Shown: positions 28,160 to 38,172 of the stretch, in pieces
Layout of the letters: each line of letters starts with the position of its first letter
How positions within the stretch are numbered: position 1 is the first letter of the stretch
NCBI GenBank assembly: GCA_963768705.1
Contig: CAVYJE010000001.1
Location: 65,122 to 129,121 of the forward strand
Source of the DNA: an uncultured Chloroflexia bacterium
GTDB taxonomy: Bacteria; Chloroflexota; Dehalococcoidia; DSTF01; WHTK01
DNA: 64,000 nt
Direction: 5' to 3'
Notes under the pieces: model-generated
Databases searched by the model: none
Told to the model about the DNA's origin: nothing
What the model saw: the letters and a program-made list of their open reading frames with translations, nothing else
Position numbers and translations under genes: made by a program

Positions 28160-28894
28160 CTACACCACCGCCCCGTCGATGAGCCTGCCGATCCCGTAGG
28201 TCACCGCCATGGCTATCGCGCCGCCGAAGACAAGCCGAAACACCGCAGGCAGCTTGGGCGACTTGCCGAGCGTCGCGCTGATGGCGCCCGTGATCGCCAG
28301 CGCGAAGAGCACGGCAATGAAGGTCACCGGTATGCGCAGCGACGCCGGCGGCAGGAGGATGGCGACGAGGGGTAGCAGCGACCCCAGGGTGAAGGCGAGG
28401 GCCGAGGCCAGCGCGGCGGTCCATGGGCTGGCAATCTCCTCGCGGTTGATGCCGAGCTCCAGGCGGAGGTGGGCTGAAAGCACGTCCCTCTCTGTCAGCT
28501 CCTCTGCTACGGTCTGCGCCGTCTCCGGGGTGAGTCCGTTTTCCTTGAGCAGCCCAACCAACTCGCTGAATTCGGCATCGGGCATCGTCTGCAGCTCGGA
28601 TTCCTCGAGTTTGATCAGGGATTGCTCGCTGTCGCGCTGCGTGCTTACCGAGACGTACTCGCCCAGAGCCATCGAGACCGCTCCGGCGACCAGGCCCGCG
28701 AAGCCCGCCGTAGCGATCGTGCTGGACGTCGTTGTCGCCGCGGCCACGCCGATCACCAAACCGGCGGTAGAGACGATGCCGTCGTTGGCGCCAAGTACGC
28801 CGGCCCGCAGCCAGTTCAGCATGCCGGAAACGGAACCGGCGTGGCTCTCTCGCGGATGAAGGGGACCGCCTCGCGCACCTCTGGCCTGACTCAT
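28160..28894 (-). CDS. VIT1/CCC1-family iron/manganese transporter
   Basis: GANDGIVSTAGLVIGVAAA...EYVSVSTQRDSE. Confidence 0.8.
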   Translation of the reverse strand: MSQARGARGGPLHPRESHAGSVSGMLNWLRAGVLGANDGIVSTAGLVIGVAAATTTSSTIATAGFAGLVAGAVSMALGEYVSVSTQRDSEQSLIKLEESELQTMPDAEFSELVGLLKENGLTPETAQTVAEELTERDVLSAHLRLELGINREEIASPWTAALASALAFTLGSLLPLVAILLPPASLRIPVTFIAVLFALAITGAISATLGKSPKLPAVFRLVFGGAIAMAVTYGIGRLIDGAVV

Positions 28895-28987
28895 GCCCGT
28901 ATTGTGACCCTACCGGACCTGCCCGGCTACGGCTTTGTACCGTTTTGGCAGGAGGTTCCTAATCGACGTGCTGGCTATAATCGCCGC

Positions 28988-30566
28988 ATGCGTGCACTTC
29001 TCGCCCCTTACGACAAGACCGGATTGATCGAATTCGCCCGTGGCCTTACCGGCATGGGTTGGAGCCTGCTGGCGACCGGCAACACGGAACGCATCTTGCG
29101 TGAAGCCGGGCTGCCCGTGACCAGCGTCGCCGAGGTCATCGGCTTCCCCGAGATCCTCGACGGGCGGGTGAAGACGCTGCATCCGGCGATTCATGGCGGC
29201 CTCCTCGCTCGCCGCGACAAGCCGGAGCACATGCAGGAGCTGGCGCAGCACGGTATTGAGGCCATCGACCTCGTCGTCAACAACCTCTACCCCTTCGAAG
29301 CGACGATCGGCAAGGACGGCGTGACCGAGGAAGAGGCGATCGAGAACATCGATATCGGCGGGCCGGCCATGCTGCGCGCTGCCGCGAAGAACTTCCAGGC
29401 CGTCGTCGTGCTCTGCGACCCGGCCGATTACGACCAGACCCTGGCATCGCTGCAGGCCGGCGGTGTCAGCGAGGAGCAGCGACGCGCCCTCGCCGCCAAG
29501 GCCTTCCAGCACGTCGCTCTATACGACACGCTGGTCTCGCGTTACCTGCGGGGCGACGACGACAAGCTCTCGTACCCGGACGAGCTCACGATCGGCCTGC
29601 GCAAGCGCGAAGACCTCGACCTGCGCTACGGCGAGAACCCTCACCAGTCCGGCGCGCTCTACCTGGAGGCTGGACGCAAAGCAGCAGGGCATCTCCGGCT
29701 TCGAGCAGCTGCATGGCATCCCGATGTCGTTCAACAACGTGCTCGACGCCGACGCCGCGTGGCGGACCGCCATTGACTTCGCGGACCCCACGATCGCGAT
29801 CGTGAAACACCTCAATCCCTGCGGCCTCGCGAGCCACGAAGACCTCAAGGTCGCCTACGAGCGCGCGCTTTCGGGCGACCCCATTTCGGCCTTCGGGGGC
29901 ATCGTCGCCTGCAACCGGCCGATCGACGGTGAGCTGGCGGCTACGATGCGCGCCAGCGTCAGCCCCTCGAGCGGCCAGCGCATGCTCTACGAGATCATCG
30001 TCGCGCCGGACTTCACGGAGGAGGCGCTCGAAGCCCTGCGACGCTGGCGCAACGTGCGCATCCTCAAGGTGTCGGGCGCCCGCGGCGCATCTCAGGTCGA
30101 TGACGCCTTCCCGTACGACCTGCGGCGGGTCGGCGGCGGCTTCCTCATACAGGACCCCGACCTCAAGCCGGACGACTCCCTGGAGCTGAAGGTCGCGAGC
30201 CAGCGAGAGCCGACCGAGGAAGAGCTGGCCGACATGCGATTCGCCTGGCGGGCCTGCAAGCACATCAAGTCCAACGCCATCGTGCTCGCCAAAGACCGTA
30301 CCTTGCTGGGCATGGGCGCCGGTCAGCCGAACCGCATCACCAGCGTCAAGATCGCCGTCGAGCGCGCCGGTGAACGCGCCCGCGGCAGCGTCCTCGCCTC
30401 TGACGCCTTCTTCCCCTTCTTCGACGGCATGGCCACCGCAGCCGCAGCCGGCATCGCCGCCGCCATCGAGCCGGGCGGCTCCGTCCGCGACGCCGAAGTC
30501 ATCGCCGTCGCCGACGCAGCGGGCATGGCCCTCGTGTTCAGCGGCGAACGCCACTTCCGGCACTAG
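28988..30566 (+). pseudogene. purH: bifunctional IMP cyclohydrolase/AICAR formyltransferase, apparent frameshift near 29660-29685 (probably a sequence error)
   Basis: MRALLAPYDKTGLIEFARGL...RYGENPHQSGALY is in one frame. GISGFEQLHGIPMSFNNVLDADAAW...KHLNPCG continues in the +1 frame. Confidence 0.85.
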
Positions 30567-31045: not shown

Positions 31046-31774
31046 ATGGCGACGATAGACGTTGTCCTGCCGGTGTACAACGAGGCGCACGTGCTCGAGC
31101 GCAGCGTGCGGGCGCTGCATGCGTTTCTTACAGACCACCTGACGCATGAATGGCGCATCGTCATCGCCGACAACGGGTCGAAGGACGGTACCGCCGAGGT
31201 GGCGAAGCGGCTCGAGGCGGAGTTGCCGGACGTCGCGGTGATGCGGATACCGGAGGCCGGCCGGGGAAGGGCGCTGACGCGCGCCTGGCTGGCCAGCAAG
31301 GCCGATGTTCTCGCCTACATGGACATCGACCTGTCGACGGACCTGGAGGCGTTTCCGCGCCTCGTCAGCCTCGTGGCGGACCAGGGTTACGATGTTGCCG
31401 CCGGCAGCCGCCTCGATCGTGCCAGTGAGACGGAGCGCTCCTTGAAGCGCGAGGTCCTCTCGCGCGGCTTCGTGTGGCTGATCACGCTGATGTTCCGGGC
31501 CCGGCTGGACGACACCCAGTGCGGCTTCAAGGCGATCGGCCGGGATTGCGCCCAGCAGTTGCTGCCGTTGGTGCGCGATACGGGCTGGTTCTGGGATACG
31601 GAGCTCCTGCTCATGGCGCGCAAGGGAGGCTGGCAGGTGGCTTTTGTGCCCGTGCGTTGGGTGGAGGATAGGGATTCCCGGGTAAGGGTCGTGCAGACCG
31701 TCCTGAAGGACGTAAAGGGCCTTCTGCGCATGCTGCGCTTCGATTGGTCTAGGGCGCGAAAGCCAGATGCATAG
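31046..31774 (+). CDS. family 2 glycosyltransferase (polyprenol-phosphate sugar synthase-like)
   Basis: VVLPVYNE, IADNGSKDGT and AYMDIDLSTD motifs. Confidence 0.8.
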   Translation: MATIDVVLPVYNEAHVLERSVRALHAFLTDHLTHEWRIVIADNGSKDGTAEVAKRLEAELPDVAVMRIPEAGRGRALTRAWLASKADVLAYMDIDLSTDLEAFPRLVSLVADQGYDVAAGSRLDRASETERSLKREVLSRGFVWLITLMFRARLDDTQCGFKAIGRDCAQQLLPLVRDTGWFWDTELLLMARKGGWQVAFVPVRWVEDRDSRVRVVQTVLKDVKGLLRMLRFDWSRARKPDA

Positions 31775-31855
31775 GAAGCTCCCGTGTCGCGTCATAGACG
31801 TTTCCATGACGTTTCAGGCAGGCCGTTTTGAATCTAAAAACGGCGAGGGGCTTGG

Positions 31856-31884
31856 TTGACACTAATAGGGGCCGATGCTAGATT
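31856..31884 (+). promoter_or_regulatory. sigma-70-like promoter candidate for the cytochrome bc operon
   Basis: TTGACA (31856-31861), a 17-nt spacer, then TAGATT (31879-31884). Confidence 0.45.
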
Positions 31885-31957
31885 GCGGCTTGCTAACGCC
31901 TTCACAAACCTGCGCGAATTTGCGAAGTGAAGGTGCTCATAAAGCGAACGGGGCGAG

Positions 31958-32110
31958 ATGGATTTCTCACTACTCTTCAACGGTTTTCACCCCGACGACG
32001 TCTTCGGTCGAGCTATCTCCGTCGATGGAGCTGAGCTCGTCCTCGTATTCGGCACCATTGCCATCAGCCTTGCGATCATGGTCTGGTTCGGCAATTGGTG
32101 GTCTCGCTAA
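31958..32110 (+). CDS. small (50 aa) single-TM ORF, first cistron of the cytochrome bc operon (not in ORF track)
   Basis: Own translation gives MDFSLLFNGFHPDDVFGRAISVDGAELVLVFGTIAISLAIMVWFGNWWSR-stop. It ends 15 nt before the cyt b start. Confidence 0.35.
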   Translation: MDFSLLFNGFHPDDVFGRAISVDGAELVLVFGTIAISLAIMVWFGNWWSR

Positions 32111-32125
32111 CCAGGAGGCTCGGCT

Positions 32126-32896
32126 ATGGCCGCAAGTAATCGTCCGAAAACAGAAAGGCCGAAAGGAACCGGCCTTCTGGGGTCGATCTACGACAAGGTC
32201 TTTCACAACTACGTCTGGCAGTCGATCTTCCGGAGCGGTTACCCGAACACTCCTCGAAATCAGATGCTGGTCGTCGCGACCAACGTCTTCCTGCACCTTC
32301 ACCCGACGCGTATCCACAAGACGCACGTCAAGATCACGCACACCTACTGCCTCGGCGGTCTGAGCTTCTTCCTGTTCTTAGGACTCACCGTCACAGGCGT
32401 CTTACTTATGTTCTATTACGTACCGTCAGTCGAGCGCGCCTACACAGACATCGCCGCGCTGGAGACGAACGTCCGGTACGGTTCCCTCATGCGCAACATG
32501 CACCGCTGGATGGCGCACGGCATGGTCCTGACCGTCCTGTTGCATATGATGCGCGTGTTCTACACGGGCGCTTATAAGCCCCCACGCGAGTTCAACTGGG
32601 TGGTTGGCGTCATCCTTCTTATCCTGACGCTCCTGCTCAGCTTCACCGGCTACCTTCTGCCGTGGGACCAGCTGGCACTCTGGGCCATCACCGTGGGTAC
32701 CAACATGGTGGGTTCGGCTCCAGTCCTCGGTGACTCCGTCGTGTTCGTCATGCGCGGTGGCTTCGAGGTCGGCCCCAACGCTCTTATCCGCTTCTACACG
32801 CTGCACGTCATCGGCTTGCCCCTTGTCGCAGCGATCTTTATGGCCGTTCACTTCTGGCGTATCCGTCGCGACGGCGGTATGGCTCGGCCTCTGTAA
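32126..32896 (+). CDS. cytochrome b6-like subunit (cytochrome b N-terminal domain)
   Basis: LHLHPTRI...[22 protein letters not shown]...[30 protein letters not shown]...[12 protein letters not shown] aggagg. Confidence 0.9.
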
Positions 32897-32917
32897 GCGG
32901 ACCGGAGAGAGAAAGCT

Positions 32918-33949
32918 TTGGCAGCAACTACTACGACCCCATCCCAGGTAAGACCGCGACGCGAGCGCGAGGAAGAACTCCTCGTCTGGCCTGACCTGGT
33001 ATTTGTCGAGTTCATCTGTGCGGTCCTCTTCACGTTGTCGTTCACGTTGCTCTCGTCGGTGATCAACGCACCGCTGATCAACCGCGCGAACGGCGACGTT
33101 ACCCCGAACCCTTCGAAGGCGCCGTGGTACTTCCTGAACCTGCAGGAGTTGCTCCTGCACATGAACCCGGCCCTCGCCGGTGTGGTTGTGCCGACCGTCT
33201 TCCTGATCGTTCTCGCCGCGGTGCCTTACCTGGACCGCAGCAAGGATGGCCAGGGTGAGTGGTTCGGTACGGCGAACGCCGTCCGCATCAGCGTTTTCTC
33301 CGGCCTGTTCTCATTCTTCGGAACTTTGACCCTCATCCTCTTCGACGCGGGCAAGCACGCCCAGATCTACGAAAAGATCACTGGCTCGGCGTGGCCTGTC
33401 GGTGAAGACCGGCCGGGCTGGTTGCCGGACGTCGGCATCGTCAATGCGATCTGGGACCTTGTCTTCACGCGTGACATCCGCTCGATTCAGACCAGCTGGC
33501 ACTGGAGCATCAACTTCTTCGGCATCGAAGGTCCAACCGGCAACGATGGTCGCCTGACCTGGCCGGCAGACTTCACACGCATCCCGCTGCCGATCATCAA
33601 CGGCACCTGGTGGCCGAAGTGGGGCACCACCCACGGCGAACCGCCGCCAACCTGGTATCAGCACCTGCCAGACTGGTTGACGGGCCTCTACCCGTACGAC
33701 CTCAACATCAACTTCCCGGCGAACCTGGTCGAGATCATCATCCCGAGCACGATCATGATCGCGTTGCCTGCGCTGCTCATCTACATCCTGTGGCGCATCG
33801 GCTGGGTAAACACACGGCGAGACGTCATGCTCAGCCTGTTCAGCGGCTTCATCGTTGCTTACTGGCTCATGACTATCGTTGGTGCACTGTTCCGCGGTGC
33901 CGGCCAGGAGCTGGTCTGGCCCTGGGACGTGCCACGAATCGACGGGTAG
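32918..33949 (+). CDS. cytochrome bc subunit IV-like protein (cytochrome b C-terminal domain) with long C-terminal extension
   Basis: WPDLVFVEF...NPSKAPWYFLNLQELL, followed by about 200 extra residues with additional TM helices. TTG start. Confidence 0.8.
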   Translation: MAATTTTPSQVRPRREREEELLVWPDLVFVEFICAVLFTLSFTLLSSVINAPLINRANGDVTPNPSKAPWYFLNLQELLLHMNPALAGVVVPTVFLIVLAAVPYLDRSKDGQGEWFGTANAVRISVFSGLFSFFGTLTLILFDAGKHAQIYEKITGSAWPVGEDRPGWLPDVGIVNAIWDLVFTRDIRSIQTSWHWSINFFGIEGPTGNDGRLTWPADFTRIPLPIINGTWWPKWGTTHGEPPPTWYQHLPDWLTGLYPYDLNINFPANLVEIIIPSTIMIALPALLIYILWRIGWVNTRRDVMLSLFSGFIVAYWLMTIVGALFRGAGQELVWPWDVPRIDG

Positions 33950-34024
33950 GCAACGAAACTAGACCTTAACGCCGCCCTGTAAGACGCTAGAGCGGCGAAA
34001 ATCTTGGGGAAGGAAGGCAGAACT

Positions 34025-35043
34025 ATGGGGCGCTTGAGCCTTTGGCCTGCAATCCTCGGCATAGCACTTGCGATGATCGTCGTCGTGCTCATCGAGCCCG
34101 TCGCGAACTCTATGGCCTACGCTGCGGGTGCTGTCGTATTGATTGCCCTGCTCGGCTGGGTCACCGAGGCTCGCGCGGTCGCTGGACCGCCGCCGGCCGT
34201 CGAGCCTGAGCACGAGGAAGAAGAAGAGGCGCCCGGCCCCAGCTACTGGCCTGTCGTGCTCGCCCTCGGCATCGTCGGCATCGCCGCCGGCATTGTTTAC
34301 GACTTCAAAGAGGGCGCCCTGGTTGTGGCCGTGCCGCTGGCCCTGTGGTCGGGCGGTGCCTGGGCCAACGCCATCAAGGCAGAGATGATGCCGGAGGGAG
34401 GCGACGCTGAGTTCGAAGCCGAGCCCATCGTCACGTCCGGTGGCCGAGTGCTCATGCCTGTTCAGCCCAACATGCTGGCCACCCAGGCCGCCGGTGGCGC
34501 TGCCATCGCCCTGGAGCGCGTCCAGCAGAAGGAAATTTCCCGTCGCGGCCTGCTGCGCATCACGTTTTGGAGCGGCCTTGGCGCCGGCCTCCTGGCTTTC
34601 GCCGGCACACTGGTCGACTTCCTGTACCCGCGCGGCATTACCGGTTTCGGTAGTGTCGTTTCGGCCGGACCGGTGGCAGTTCCCTCCCGGCACGAAGACC
34701 CAGAACTTTGCAGGCCACTTCTGGCTCGTCAACCTGACCGAGGAGCAGGGTGGTTCCGGTTTCCTTGCACTCTGGTGGAAGTGCCCGCACCTTGGTTGCA
34801 CGGTGCCGTGGCGCGACAACTTCTCCTTCGTCGACCCGACGACGGGCGCGAACAAGCAGGGTTGGTTCCGCTGCCCCTGCCACGGTTCGACATACACGGA
34901 CGCCGGTGTTCGCGTGTTCGGTCCGGCACCCCGCTCCATGGACCACATGGAACTCGACGATTACGGACGGCAACATCAGCGTGAACACGGGCGCCATCAC
35001 TAAAGGCACCGAAGATAACGCCAGCTTCGCCGTCCAGGCGTAG
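34025..35043 (+). pseudogene. Rieske [2Fe-2S] subunit with multi-TM N-terminal extension; two apparent frameshifts (probably sequence errors)
   Basis: CPHLGC...CPCHGS are in the middle frame. The TM-rich N-terminus is in the first frame and switches near 34675-34682. The C-terminus [17 protein letters not shown] is in a third frame and switches near 34953-34957. Confidence 0.8.
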
Positions 35044-35084
35044 GGGAATATGACCAGGGGAGGCCGCAGCTTAGAGGCGGACGC

Positions 35085-36398
35085 ATGAACACACGAAAAC
35101 AAGTCCTCATCATGTCTGGTCTGCTGCTGGTGATGCTCATGGTCATCGCCGTTTACGCTGCCTGGTACCCGAGCCGTGCGGATAGCTCCGCGGAGCACTT
35201 CCAGGAGGCTACCGCAGAGCGTGGCGCCATCCTTTTCGCCCGCAACTGCCGCCTCTGTCACGGTGACGTAGCTGAAGGTGGCGCTTTGGGTGGCCGGCTG
35301 GCCGCCGCACCGGCACTCCACCGCCCCGACCTGCAGGGCTTCCAGGACAGCGACGCCAAAATCGCCGCCGAGGTTGGTCTGACCAACACCACCGTCGAAG
35401 TCGACGATGGCTCGAAGTTGAAGGTAGACGACACCATCCTCCTGGACGAAGAGCGCATGAAGGTCACCGCGATCGACGGCACAACCCTTACCGTCGAGCG
35501 CGCAGTCGAGAACACGGAAGCGGGCGGTCACTTCCCTGGCGGTATTGTCTACGTCTTTGCTCAGGCTCTCCTTAACGAGAAGATCGACCTGATAACGAAC
35601 ACGATTACCTGTGGGCGCGTCGGTACGGCGATGCCCGCATGGGCCAAGACCCAGGGCGGCCCGCTCAGCGACGAGCAGATTCGTCAGCTCATGACTTTGA
35701 TTACCAACGGTCGTTGGGACCTCGTGGCGGACGAAGTCAACATCGAAGACCTGATTACGGCTCAGCTCACGGACGCGGTCAGCGCCGACACCACACAGAT
35801 CAGCGTGACGGACATCACCCGATTCAACCAGAACGACGCCATCCGGCTCGGCACCGAGCGCCTGCGCGTGACGGAGGTCCCGGCATTCGAGAACGGGGCA
35901 ACGCATGTCGCCGGCACCCTGACCGTCGAGCGCGCGGTGGACAACTCGTTCGCTTCGGAGCACCCCCAGGACACGACGATCTACAAGTTCCCTGAGGTCG
36001 CCGAGCCGGCAGTCAACAAGCAGTCCTGTGGCCAGACAGCGAAGGCGCCGGTGCCACAGGGCACGCCTGAGCTCATCGAGAACTTCGACGGCGACCAGAC
36101 GGTGGAAGTCACGGCTCAGAACATCGCCTTCGACACGGACAACATCACGATTAAGGCTGACGGCGAGGTCCGTATCCGCTTCACCAACAAGGACCCGGCC
36201 ACGCCGCACAACATCGCCTTCTACAACAGCGAGTCCGACACGACGCCGGTCTCAGATGGCAGCGTTGGCATCCAGTTCGATGGCACTGCCGACGGCGTAA
36301 CGGATGACACGGTGTTCGCTATCCCGGATCCAGGTACCTACTACTTCCGGTGTGACGTTCACCCCACGATCATGTTTGGTACCTTCACCGTCGAATAG
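35085..36398 (+). CDS. membrane-anchored monoheme cytochrome c fused to a type-1 copper (cupredoxin) domain
   Basis: N-terminal TM helix, then C55-R-L-C-H59 and distal GTAM183PAW. The C-terminal copper ligands are H375 (PHNIAF) and C423/H426/M430 (FRCDVHPTIM). Confidence 0.85.
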   Translation: MNTRKQVLIMSGLLLVMLMVIAVYAAWYPSRADSSAEHFQEATAERGAILFARNCRLCHGDVAEGGALGGRLAAAPALHRPDLQGFQDSDAKIAAEVGLTNTTVEVDDGSKLKVDDTILLDEERMKVTAIDGTTLTVERAVENTEAGGHFPGGIVYVFAQALLNEKIDLITNTITCGRVGTAMPAWAKTQGGPLSDEQIRQLMTLITNGRWDLVADEVNIEDLITAQLTDAVSADTTQISVTDITRFNQNDAIRLGTERLRVTEVPAFENGATHVAGTLTVERAVDNSFASEHPQDTTIYKFPEVAEPAVNKQSCGQTAKAPVPQGTPELIENFDGDQTVEVTAQNIAFDTDNITIKADGEVRIRFTNKDPATPHNIAFYNSESDTTPVSDGSVGIQFDGTADGVTDDTVFAIPDPGTYYFRCDVHPTIMFGTFTVE

Positions 36399-36421
36399 AG
36401 ACAACAGCAAACCAAGTCCAG

Positions 36422-36449
36422 AGGGCCGGCAAATCCGCCGGCCCTTTTC
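36422..36449 (+). terminator. rho-independent terminator of the cytochrome bc operon
   Basis: gggccggc-aaatcc-gccggccc followed by tttt. Confidence 0.75.
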
Positions 36450-36567
36450 ACGTCTTCGTCTCTGCGCTGATGCCGCCCTCGCCTCGAGCGTTGCCTGCGT
36501 CAATTGGCGGGCGGGCCTGCGAGAAGGTTTCGCCGGTGGCAGGTTCCTGCTATGGTGATCTTGGCGG

Positions 36568-38172
36568 GTGCAAAAAGTAGGTTCAGTGCGTCTACCCGAC
36601 CTCCTCACTTCCAATCTGTCTCTGCTAACGAAGGCCGTCCTCGCGGCAGGGTTGCTGACGGCGTTCGTCGTGTTCGCATCCGGCGGCAGCGAGACGGCGA
36701 AGGCGACCACTGGCTACTCCTTCGGCGTCGAGAACTCCTGGATCCGCGTCCAGAACATCGGTAACTACGACGCGACCGTGCAGCTCGACTACTTCGACCC
36801 CGATGGCAACCTCGCCGGCACGGACAACTGCCCGTCTGCCACCTGCCCGCCCATGTACCCCGGCAGCGGCTGGACCTTCTTCCAGGGCGATAACGCCACG
36901 CTGCCCCAGGGCTTCGCGGGCTCCTCCGTGATCTCGACAGACCAGCCTGTCGTCGCCGTGCTCGCGAAGGACGTGCGGCGCAACGGCAAGTTCTCGATTG
37001 CGGGCGACACGCTGGAGACGGGGCCCGGCTCCCACCGCCTCTACCTGCCCGTGACCGGCAAGTACGATGGCCCGAACCAGGACTGGAGCGGGCGCTTCGT
37101 GATTCAGAACATGAGCGATAGCGTCACGGCCTGCGTCACCATCACCTACCTGAGCAACTACACCGACTCGGAGGTCGCCTGGGAGCCTTACAAGCCCTCC
37201 GAGTCCTCGTCCTCCGTGGCATTCGCCGATTGCCCTCACGGCGGCATGCCGTTGCCGCCCCGGGGCAGCATCCTCAAGTACCCGGACAACATGGCGGTGC
37301 CGGCGCCGTTTACCGGCTCCGTGCGCATCGATCTCAGCACCAACAAGAAGGGACAGGGGCCGGAGAAGCAGTTCATCTCCGCCACGGCCGACTCCTGGAA
37401 CCTCAACCTCGCGTCCTTCGGCTCCTACCGTGGCTTCTCGGACGACGACCTGGGGCACGAGGTCCTTCTGCCGCTGGTCGACCGTGAGGTGGGGCCGGAG
37501 AACTCCTGGAGCACGCGCTTCTTTATCGCCAACAAGGACCCGAACAAGCCAGCCGTGGTCAACGTCGAGTTTCGGGGCTACGACGTCGATAGCGCCACGC
37601 CCGATGCGCTCATCGTCAAGACGAACACCTTCACCATCAAAGGCGGTCGTATGTGCTTCCAGGCCTGGGATGACGCCGCCAACTGCCTCGCCGAGGGCGA
37701 TAGGCTGCCCACGAACTTCGTGGGCACGGCTCGTCTTACCTCGACGGAGCCGATCGCCGTGATCGTCGACCGCGACACCTGGCTCACGGAGTCGTTCACG
37801 GACTATCGCGGCATCCGGCCGGAGGACGCTTCGACCAAGGTACTGCTGCCCGTGCTCAACAAGAACTACGGCCCGGAGAACGGTGTCGGCGCGGGCTGGA
37901 ACAGCTGGTTCCGCGTCATGGTCGCCGACGGTGGCACCGCGAACGTTACGGTGACCTACTACGGCCTCGACATTCCCGGCGGCAGCACGTCCTACACCGT
38001 GCCCGTCGACCGCGAGTTCACGGTGTTCCAGTTCAACGAGAACTTGCCCGATGGCTTCGCGGGCACCGCGATTATCTCGTCCGACCGCCCCGTCGTCGCG
38101 CTCGCCAACATCTACACCGACAGCTTCACGGGCGACCCGGATGTGCTCTACAACGGTGTGCCTCTGAACTAG
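36568..38172 (+). CDS. secreted or membrane-anchored protein with four internal ~100-120 aa repeats, unknown family
   Basis: An N-terminal hydrophobic anchor is followed by a repeated pattern: LLP-x-(Y)-GP-x-N-x-W-x-(R)F-x-(I/V)-x-N...V-x-V-x-Y...LP-x-GF-x-G(S/T)-x-(V/I)IS-x-(D/E)-x-P-(V/I). Confidence 0.7.
   Translation: MQKVGSVRLPDLLTSNLSLLTKAVLAAGLLTAFVVFASGGSETAKATTGYSFGVENSWIRVQNIGNYDATVQLDYFDPDGNLAGTDNCPSATCPPMYPGSGWTFFQGDNATLPQGFAGSSVISTDQPVVAVLAKDVRRNGKFSIAGDTLETGPGSHRLYLPVTGKYDGPNQDWSGRFVIQNMSDSVTACVTITYLSNYTDSEVAWEPYKPSESSSSVAFADCPHGGMPLPPRGSILKYPDNMAVPAPFTGSVRIDLSTNKKGQGPEKQFISATADSWNLNLASFGSYRGFSDDDLGHEVLLPLVDREVGPENSWSTRFFIANKDPNKPAVVNVEFRGYDVDSATPDALIVKTNTFTIKGGRMCFQAWDDAANCLAEGDRLPTNFVGTARLTSTEPIAVIVDRDTWLTESFTDYRGIRPEDASTKVLLPVLNKNYGPENGVGAGWNSWFRVMVADGGTANVTVTYYGLDIPGGSTSYTVPVDREFTVFQFNENLPDGFAGTAIISSDRPVVALANIYTDSFTGDPDVLYNGVPLN

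Follow-up and report, generated by a model that had tools for sequence, protein, structure and literature searches.

Architecture and conservation of a cytochrome c–cupredoxin protein

We examined a 64,000-nucleotide stretch (hereafter, the window) of the genome of an uncultured soil Chloroflexota bacterium (class Dehalococcoidia, order DSTF01, family WHTK01; assembly GCA_963768705.1, contig CAVYJE010000001.1, positions 65,122 to 129,121 of the forward strand), and within it a gene at window positions 35085–36398 that closes an operon for a Rieske/cytochrome b complex. Its open reading frame (ORF) is open throughout and, with no internal stops, translates into a 437-amino-acid (aa) protein. 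An N-terminal transmembrane anchor is followed on this single chain by a class-I cytochrome c, two copies of a small barrel module (one of them lodged inside the cytochrome), and a type-1 copper domain. From sequence, fold, and genomic context, we consider it probable that this protein is the exit subunit of a b6c-type Rieske/cytochrome b complex, equivalent to cytochrome c1, cytochrome f, or QcrC in other complexes. The gene and its parts are as follows:

35085–36398, plus strand: cytochrome c–cupredoxin gene (transmembrane anchor, cytochrome c with module 1 inside, module 2, cupredoxin), 437 aa plus stop
35103–35165, plus strand: N-terminal transmembrane anchor, aa 7–27, with the basic MNTRKQ before it (hydrophobic stretch; helix aa 3–27 in the AlphaFold2 [AF2] model)
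35196–35339, plus strand: N-terminal half of the cytochrome c, aa 38–85, with C55xxCH59 at 35247–35261 (PF13442 at aa 43–75; C55/C58/H59 invariant)
35367–35561, plus strand: module 1, aa 95–159, predicted six-stranded beta-barrel in the cytochrome c fold (module profile, 2.4e-26)
35562–35750, plus strand: C-terminal half of the cytochrome c, aa 160–222, with C176 (35610–35612) and axial M183 (35631–35633) (CcoP alignment after excision of module 1)
35775–35996, plus strand: module 2, aa 231–304, second copy of the barrel (module profile, 1e-24; 33% identical to module 1)
35997–36095, plus strand: linker, aa 305–337, with the invariant C315 (36027–36029) in an S-C-G-Q motif (42-homologue alignment)
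36096–36398, plus strand: type-1 cupredoxin domain, aa 338–437, plus stop, with ligands H375/C423/H426/M430 (PF13473, PF00127)

How well is this architecture conserved? Among 5.8 billion proteins searched, at least 291 homologues share its length and architecture. The best 120 are nearly all 423–457 aa long and cover the full query at 51–79% identity; a few homologues carry the names of Dehalococcoidia metagenome-assembled genomes (MAGs) at NCBI, and the majority come from metagenomes, of soil among others. Across 42 aligned homologues (52–79% identity), the start MNTRKQV is nearly invariant, while the haem-binding C55/C58/H59, the axial M183, and the copper ligands H375/C423/H426/M430 are strictly so. 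Two further cysteines, C176 and C315, are also invariant, and each module carries an invariant E-R...R...H set. The AF2 model of the whole protein has a mean predicted local distance difference test (pLDDT) score of 84 and a predicted template-modelling score (pTM) of 0.63. A preliminary description of this DNA, made from the sequence alone, had proposed the membrane anchor and had numbered the cofactor residues as C55-R-L-C58-H59, M183 (in GTAMPAW), H375, C423, H426, and M430; the translation reproduces those numbers exactly, and the anchor recurs as both hydrophobic stretch and modelled helix.

With at least 291 homologues of the same length and architecture, a fusion produced by an indel in the assembly can be dismissed; the gene is real and under selection. 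Indels do occur in this assembly (in the Rieske gene, purH, and both COX1 copies; see below) and could in principle create a false fusion or false insertion; the preliminary description had itself envisaged a gene-fusion artefact. We give such an explanation practically no credence: the homologues stem from independent metagenomes (ENA, JGI, NCBI, and Logan) and keep the same domain order, the 42 aligned proteins match end to end with every cofactor ligand invariant, and the same ORF stands in the genome records of many MAGs. The artefact reading is thereby refuted.

A class-I cytochrome c divided by a module

The CxxCH motif and the axial Met lie far apart in the chain, and the preliminary description explained the distance by a module inserted into the cytochrome. 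In the intact protein, Pfam recognizes only the first part of a cytochrome c (PF13442 at aa 43–75, model positions 2–33 of 68, 7.8e-7), which includes CxxCH with its proximal His. When aa 86–158 are cut out in silico, the remaining 120 residues match PF13442 over positions 2–65 of 68 (8.7e-10) and PF00034 over positions 1–86 of 90. Excision thus restores full-length matches to the cytochrome c family and brings in the distal Met, which bears out both the insertion and the cytochrome identity of the CxxCH region. The alignment of the excised cytochrome to CcoP haem domains takes in the Met loop (I..tI..GR.G.MPxW) and the C-terminal helix, and M183 falls on the Met of MPxW.

Relatives lead to the same division of the chain. 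Orthologues with an uninterrupted cytochrome are encoded in sister families within the order and in a further family of the class (PF13442 positions 3–68 of 68 in locus L070), and genome matches in these families cover query residues 1–90 and 166–436, with nothing between. The insertion point lies between a conserved RPDLQG loop and the helix leading to C176-G-R-V-G-T-A-M183, i.e., in the most variable loop region of class-I cytochromes c, and in the AF2 model helices flank a well-predicted beta module there (pLDDT 92–96 for aa 81–170). These comparisons all argue that module 1 splits one class-I cytochrome c, and a whole foreign domain nested in so small a fold is a rare case. Motif and profile also predict a haem c on C55xxCH59; the genome encodes a CcsA-type cytochrome c maturation protein. 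A Foldseek search of the whole model against the PDB returned nothing on the cytochrome or the modules, as the top 50 matches were all cupredoxin-containing.

A type-1 copper domain at the C terminus

Two Pfam cupredoxin models match the C-terminal domain above their curated cut-offs: Cupredoxin_1 (PF13473, aa 335–436, 2.5e-8, 34.3 bits against a cut-off of 27) and Copper-bind (PF00127, aa 340–437, 1.4e-6, 29.1 bits against 21.2). H375, C423, H426, and M430 align with the plastocyanin ligands and form the His...Cys-x(n)-His-x(n)-Met set of a type-1 site. For this domain, Foldseek recovers amicyanin and auracyanins A and B at template-modelling scores (TM-scores) of 0.54–0.62 by target length, and the cupredoxin matches, which include amicyanin, auracyanin, and the CuA domains of nitrous oxide reductase (N2OR), have a probability of 1.00. 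The proposed type-1 copper domain is thus well founded. As to the auracyanin-like role suggested with it, the domain has the fold and the ligands of a type-1 cupredoxin, while membership of the auracyanin family itself is not established, phmmer giving E 0.062 and a partial match only against auracyanin 2aan_A, and the structural likeness (TM-score 0.59–0.62) coming at 23–24% identity.

Barrel modules shared with phage tail tips

What are the two modules? Their sequences share 33% identity (E 3e-10), the hairpin of module 2 being nine residues longer, and a profile built from 35 module copies places them at aa 95–159 and 231–304, which secures the second copy noticed in the preliminary description. 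Module 2 lies outside the cytochrome fold; its place is a variable loop bounded by the cytochrome on one side and by a conserved Cys on the other. Searched against the PDB, the profile matches 8vjh_A, annotated "Minor tail protein," in two copies (5.9e-13), and 8rk3_o, a "Tip attachment protein J" chain (6.2e-7); the former is the tip protein of phage Chi (PMC11945409) and the latter the baseplate hub gp53 of phage JBD30. An AF2 model of the module alone (pLDDT 94.8) finds its best PDB match in the same JBD30 hub (8rk3_b, TM-score 0.83, root-mean-square deviation [rmsd] 1.7 Å), with further fold matches among tailspike, tail-tube, and capsid decoration domains and other small barrels. In BFVD, many phage tail-fibre, tail, and capsid proteins match it at TM-scores of 0.9–0.95 (rmsd 0.7–1.3 Å). 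Two PHROG families are linked to the module, 1101 and 4406, the first of which ("tail protein") is matched by 32 of the 35 copies, and the motif E-x-[ML]-x-V...G-x-[LV]-x-V-x-R-[GA]...T...H is shared with the phage-tail-type barrels. The likeness to phage minor-tail proteins suggested in the preliminary description is thereby substantiated; by profile and model, the modules are predicted six-stranded beta-barrels homologous to domain VI of JBD30 gp53 and to the central fibre/hub repeat of Chi. The host proteins differ, being virion proteins in the two phages and a respiratory cytochrome here.

The module is far more widespread than the cytochrome. A scan of 1.84 billion representative proteins found it in 8,466 of them at E up to 1e-3, with as many as 33 copies in one protein and proteins of up to about 8,000 aa; some of the multi-module proteins (P0121–P0269) carry RTX repeats, TadE-like N termini, or a Peptidase_S74 tail-fibre chaperone domain. 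Copies in this wider family have the consensus I.ID.EQMLVT.V.GNTLTV.RG..GT.A..H..G..V. Pfam gave only sub-threshold matches to the isolated modules (NfeD_C, PA14) and faint ones to their multi-copy relatives (MJ0548_C, SH3_15, DUF6531), with a model of the module in neither case, so that a very common repeat (about 8,500 representative proteins) stands without a Pfam family. We considered the invariant E/R/H residues of the modules as a metal site and rejected the idea, as the same residues are kept in phage and surface-protein copies; because they are conserved in the whole domain family, they are hallmarks of the fold rather than a special site. Only the second residue of the ER pair is particular to this cytochrome family, the wider family having mostly EQ, EL, or EI.

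In a tree of modules, the cytochrome-inserted copies form one clade (Shimodaira–Hasegawa [SH]-like support 0.70) and the post-cytochrome copies of the same family another (0.77), and in a class survey of 301 genomes the two-module form is confined to the bacterium's own family. These patterns are consistent with a single module insertion at the base of that family. Modules 1 and 2 share the family-specific ER, and the tree, with its 65 columns, cannot tell whether module 1 derives from module 2. Some homologues of 510–523 aa (P0018, P0019 [locus L025], and P0095) have a third module, which in P0018 and P0019 groups with the cytochrome-inserted type at negligible support (SH-like 0.03).

The operon

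Upstream of the cytochrome c–cupredoxin gene lie the following features:

31856–31884, plus strand: promoter-like site TTGACA-17-TAGATT upstream of the operon (consensus scan, weak evidence)
31958–32110, plus strand: first cistron, a 50-aa ORF with a single transmembrane segment (homologous small ORFs in relatives)
32126–32896, plus strand: cytochrome b6-like subunit, 256 aa (PF00033, 2.4e-46)
32918–33949, plus strand: extended subunit IV-like protein, 343 aa (PF00032, 1.7e-6)
34025–35043, plus strand: Rieske iron-sulfur subunit with an N-terminal transmembrane extension, in three frames in this assembly (PF00355 on the middle frame)

This order—small ORF, b6, subunit IV-like, Rieske, then the cytochrome c–cupredoxin gene—is kept in every related locus with enough flanking sequence (about 50 loci), and the terminal position that the preliminary description gave the gene is therefore confirmed in the window and in relatives alike. 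A split b6, a subunit IV, and a Rieske protein in one conserved operon are the hallmarks of the b6f/b6c type, and the cytochrome c–cupredoxin protein is the sole cytochrome c that the operon encodes. The b6-like protein contains YCLGG, a motif that carries the Cys for haem ci/cn in proteins of b6f and b6c complexes, and the subunit IV-like protein, at 343 aa, is about twice as long as canonical subunit IV. The Qo motif of the latter is APWY, a clade described in PMC4122944. In most related loci with enough upstream sequence, a small ORF homologous to the first cistron immediately precedes b6 (phmmer 1e-5 to 4e-28), and such ORFs are called as genes in L001 and L002; the 50-aa protein may be a small subunit of the complex. 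The promoter-like site is the only one in 31700–36700, a count no higher than in shuffled sequence.

The Rieske gene is legible across its frame breaks. A tblastn search with the intact 339-aa orthologue of L001 (80% identical) covers it through all three frames; relative to L001, it has a 2-nucleotide deletion near 34680 and a 1-nucleotide insertion near 34956, with the 2Fe-2S motifs between the two shifts. Since purH (28622–30566) and both COX1 genes (on contigs C11 and C25) are also split, and estimated genome completeness is 69% despite long contigs, the breaks are likely to be consensus indel errors of the assembly rather than signs of pseudogenes. The N-terminal extension of the Rieske protein (about 170 aa, 34025–34560) contains hydrophobic helices, with a twin-arginine-like motif just before the last of them; it resembles the dual Sec/Tat-inserted Rieske proteins with several transmembrane helices that are described for Actinobacteria (PMC5449189). 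Downstream of the operon, at 36568–38172, lies a gene for a 534-aa exported protein without a Pfam match. L001 and L002 lack this gene at the corresponding site, which sets it apart from the conserved operon.

Variants in the same slot

Does the position after the Rieske gene hold the same protein in related lineages? We compared 59 loci from a one-genome-per-species scan and 11 from the class survey. The slot always holds a homologous, N-terminally anchored cytochrome c, and what varies is the C-terminal part:

Own family: cytochrome c with a module inside, a module, and copper domain, a few with a third module; about 430–445 aa
Another family of the same order and one further family of the class (L070–L075, L077–L079): uninterrupted cytochrome c, one module, copper domain; 360–410 aa
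L076: cytochrome c, about seven modules, copper domain; 702 aa (stop-to-stop frame)
L032–L043 and L046 (Dehalococcoidia, Tepidiformaceae MAGs): cytochrome c, LysM repeats, copper domain; 614–623 aa (stop-to-stop frames)
L041, L047, and L060: cytochrome c and copper domain, no insert
L030, L044, and L049: dihaem cc
Some Anaerolineae: multihaem, partly fused to subunit IV

Because dihaem cc and cytochrome c–copper forms share one operon slot, the copper domain stands where sister lineages have a second haem c domain and is interchangeable with it. Between the cytochrome and the second redox domain lies another slot, one that takes up unrelated, cofactor-free extracellular domains: in the LysM form, exemplified by L032 from a Tepidiformaceae MAG, four or more repeats lie between the haem domain and the cupredoxin (PF01476, 5.7e-36) and occupy the same Cys-bounded loop as module 2. 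Some match to the protein was found in 117 of the 301 sampled genomes of the class, many of these matches covering one domain only. The haem-plus-copper subunit appears to be standard in a large, abundant, and uncultured bacterial group of soils and aquifers.

The bounds of that loop deserve attention. In every Chloroflexota variant with the C-G-R...M-P-x-W Met loop, a second Cys follows 66–444 residues downstream, usually in x-C-G-Q. The dihaem forms have exactly one non-haem Cys after the C176 equivalent, and most copper forms exactly two, the partner and the copper ligand. For cysteines exposed outside the membrane, a disulfide is the best explanation of this pattern; C176 and C315 probably form one, which would tie the start of the copper tether to the Met loop of the haem domain. 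Module 2, any extra modules, and the LysM repeats would then sit inside a disulfide-closed loop as side excursions, whatever their size, and the tether would still begin beside the haem. Such a closure could be what allows the slot to tolerate differing contents without disturbing the haem–copper geometry.

Oxidase context and a proposed electron path

Where would electrons go from the copper site? The genome (28 contigs, 4.1 Mb) has two A-family haem-copper oxidase loci. Their subunit II has the transmembrane and CuA domains, and Pfam detected no cytochrome c domain in it. Directly after one COX1, in the order COX2, COX3, COX1, cupredoxin, lies a gene for a 152-aa, membrane-anchored cupredoxin (C11:24566–25054; L008:7600–8058) that is 38% identical to the fused copper domain. 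The genome has eight cupredoxin ORFs, several of them with transmembrane or lipoprotein anchors and 38–45% identical to the fused domain; similar free cupredoxins are at C14:222604–223119 (45% identical) and C28:201406–201867 (with a lipoprotein-like signal). There are only two class-I cytochromes c, the present protein being one of them. This copper-rich, cytochrome-poor chain fits a path from Rieske to haem c, to the fused copper, to an optional free cupredoxin, and on to CuA.

In the mechanism that we propose, one N-terminal helix would anchor the protein, the remainder lying on the outer face of the membrane. Electrons would pass from the Rieske cluster to the single His/Met haem c, then to the type-1 copper at the C terminus of the same chain, and from there to the CuA of an aa3-type oxidase, either directly or through a free membrane-tethered cupredoxin. 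The modules would be passive and without cofactors, module 1 sitting in the variable loop between the haem-binding and Met-donating halves of the cytochrome and module 2 in the loop that runs from its last helix to C315. A hard-wired relay of this kind had been suggested in the preliminary description and now has comparative support, as other Chloroflexota carry either a dihaem cc or a cytochrome c–copper protein in the same slot; the relay is still something that we infer.

Several observations weigh against parts of this scheme. The pTM of 0.63 makes the geometry between domains uncertain, and pLDDT falls below 50 at aa 312–321, around C315; the Rieske gene and both COX1 genes are in several frames in this assembly; and the strict conservation of two modules across more than 100 homologues, together with the LysM repeats at the same place, hints that the inserts have a function. 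This last point leads to a reading that would add to the electron relay rather than replace it, namely that the modules dock the redox head to a component of the cell envelope, whether glycan, peptidoglycan, or S-layer, or else to some partner, for example the oxidase. At least four peptidoglycan-binding LysM repeats in the module 2 loop of another Dehalococcoidia lineage, the two modules strictly kept in the family, and the occurrence of the module in phage tail fibres, tailspikes, and hubs and in giant surface proteins (with RTX, TadE, or Peptidase_S74 domains) all speak for it. However, the number of modules varies among close lineages with the same core (0, 1, 2, 3, or about 7), which suits inserts that are tolerated or act as spacers; the module domain has no defined ligand-binding site; its conserved E/R/H are hallmarks of the fold; and its homologue in JBD30 is assigned a structural role only (PMC11445458). 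We therefore regard docking as possible but doubtful.

Two other readings concern the path itself. The protein might be no stable bc subunit but a separate, co-transcribed, tethered carrier that diffuses between the complex and the oxidases, in the manner of cytochrome cy or Bacillus cytochrome c550/c551. Its N-terminal anchor and flexible linkers, the low inter-domain confidence of the model, and the free paralogous cupredoxins with anchors of their own would suit such a carrier, but the operon encodes no other cytochrome c or cupredoxin to accept electrons from the Rieske protein, across about 50 loci the gene keeps its place behind Rieske without exception, and the Anaerolineae homologue is fused to subunit IV (L058, L062, and L066), which points to a subunit; we judge a diffusing carrier unlikely. 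The copper domain could instead be where electrons enter, from an outer donor (a metal, nitrite, or another cupredoxin); the bc complex would then pass them on uphill, much as rusticyanin and bc1 work together in Acidithiobacillus. The direction of flow in bc complexes can reverse, and the genome has many cupredoxins. Yet no lithotrophic donor enzyme is found in the gene neighbourhood, two aa3-type oxidase loci are present, the copper domain is interchangeable with the second haem of dihaem subunits, and actinobacterial QcrC delivers electrons to its oxidase. Entry at the copper is thus very improbable, and an exit subunit with copper as its distal center remains the reading that we prefer.

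Comparison with known systems and significance

How does this subunit compare with known ones? Actinobacterial QcrC (PDB 6hwh, 8ovc, and 7e1v) is the closest in function, with copper here taking the place of the distal haem. QcrC, too, is a c-type subunit that is anchored in the membrane and whose gene accompanies those for Rieske and cytochrome b; it has two redox centers in series on one chain and would share with the present protein the wiring of Rieske to an oxidase without a soluble carrier; it is among the closest solved-structure sequence matches to the haem motif region, and dihaem versions of the present family fill this slot in other Dehalococcoidia. Ahead of its iron-sulfur domain, the Rieske protein here carries a multi-transmembrane N-terminal extension, and actinobacterial QcrA has three transmembrane helices. 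QcrC differs in having two haems, whereas the present protein has one haem and a type-1 copper, as well as an N-terminal anchor, inserted barrels, and a cytochrome b split into b6 and subunit IV. The QcrC model NCBIfam NF050122 gives 25 bits against a cut-off of 200, over aa 6–70 only, and with one CxxCH the protein falls outside that family. Pfam and NCBIfam scans at E up to 1 gave no match to a cytochrome c1 or f profile.

The closest in domain content is subunit II of caa3 oxidases (Thermus; Bacillus CtaC), in which one anchored chain also carries a cupredoxin and a class-I cytochrome c that exchange electrons. Those chains, however, are oxidase subunits with a binuclear CuA and run transmembrane, CuA, cytochrome c; the present one is encoded in a bc operon, has a mononuclear type-1 site (H, C, H, M), and runs transmembrane, cytochrome c, copper. 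The Firmicute b6c complex (QcrABC) shares the split b6/subunit IV, a monohaem class-I cytochrome c as exit subunit, and the conserved haem ci Cys, but its cytochrome c is fused to subunit IV—a fusion also seen in the Anaerolineae relatives—whereas here it has a separate gene, its own N-terminal anchor, the copper domain, and the barrels. As for copper proteins, the auracyanins of Chloroflexus are likewise membrane-tethered blue copper proteins that link a quinol oxidase module to a terminal oxidase, with auracyanins A and B among the best structural matches and a marginal sequence likeness (E 0.06). Halocyanin and sulfocyanin SoxE, also tethered, carry electrons in the same way within archaeal Rieske/b-oxidase supercomplexes (PMC4122944). 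All of these are separate proteins that work with alternative complex III (ACIII) or with cytochrome-c-free complexes; in the present protein, the copper domain is covalently joined to the haem c subunit.

In full-text searches on respiratory-chain design, we found no cytochrome c–cupredoxin bc subunit described, subscription journals not being covered. One may go further and picture soil Dehalococcoidia as running an undescribed class of complex III, a "b6c-Cu" complex with disulfide-stapled haem c and type-1 copper, hard-wired into an aa3 supercomplex that needs no diffusible carrier, and with a variable slot that couples the redox head to the envelope; in this full form the idea is speculative and, on present evidence, rather unlikely. 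The subunit type itself is widespread in uncultured Dehalococcoidia. The exit subunit is the main basis on which bc/b6f complexes are sorted into types (c1, f, dihaem cc, or, in archaea, no such subunit but a copper protein), and a haem c subunit with a built-in blue copper would be a bacterial intermediate between the "cytochrome" and "copper" solutions. With a second haem or copper at the far end, and zero to seven barrels or LysM repeats in between, its variants form a natural series for studying tethered electron transfer.

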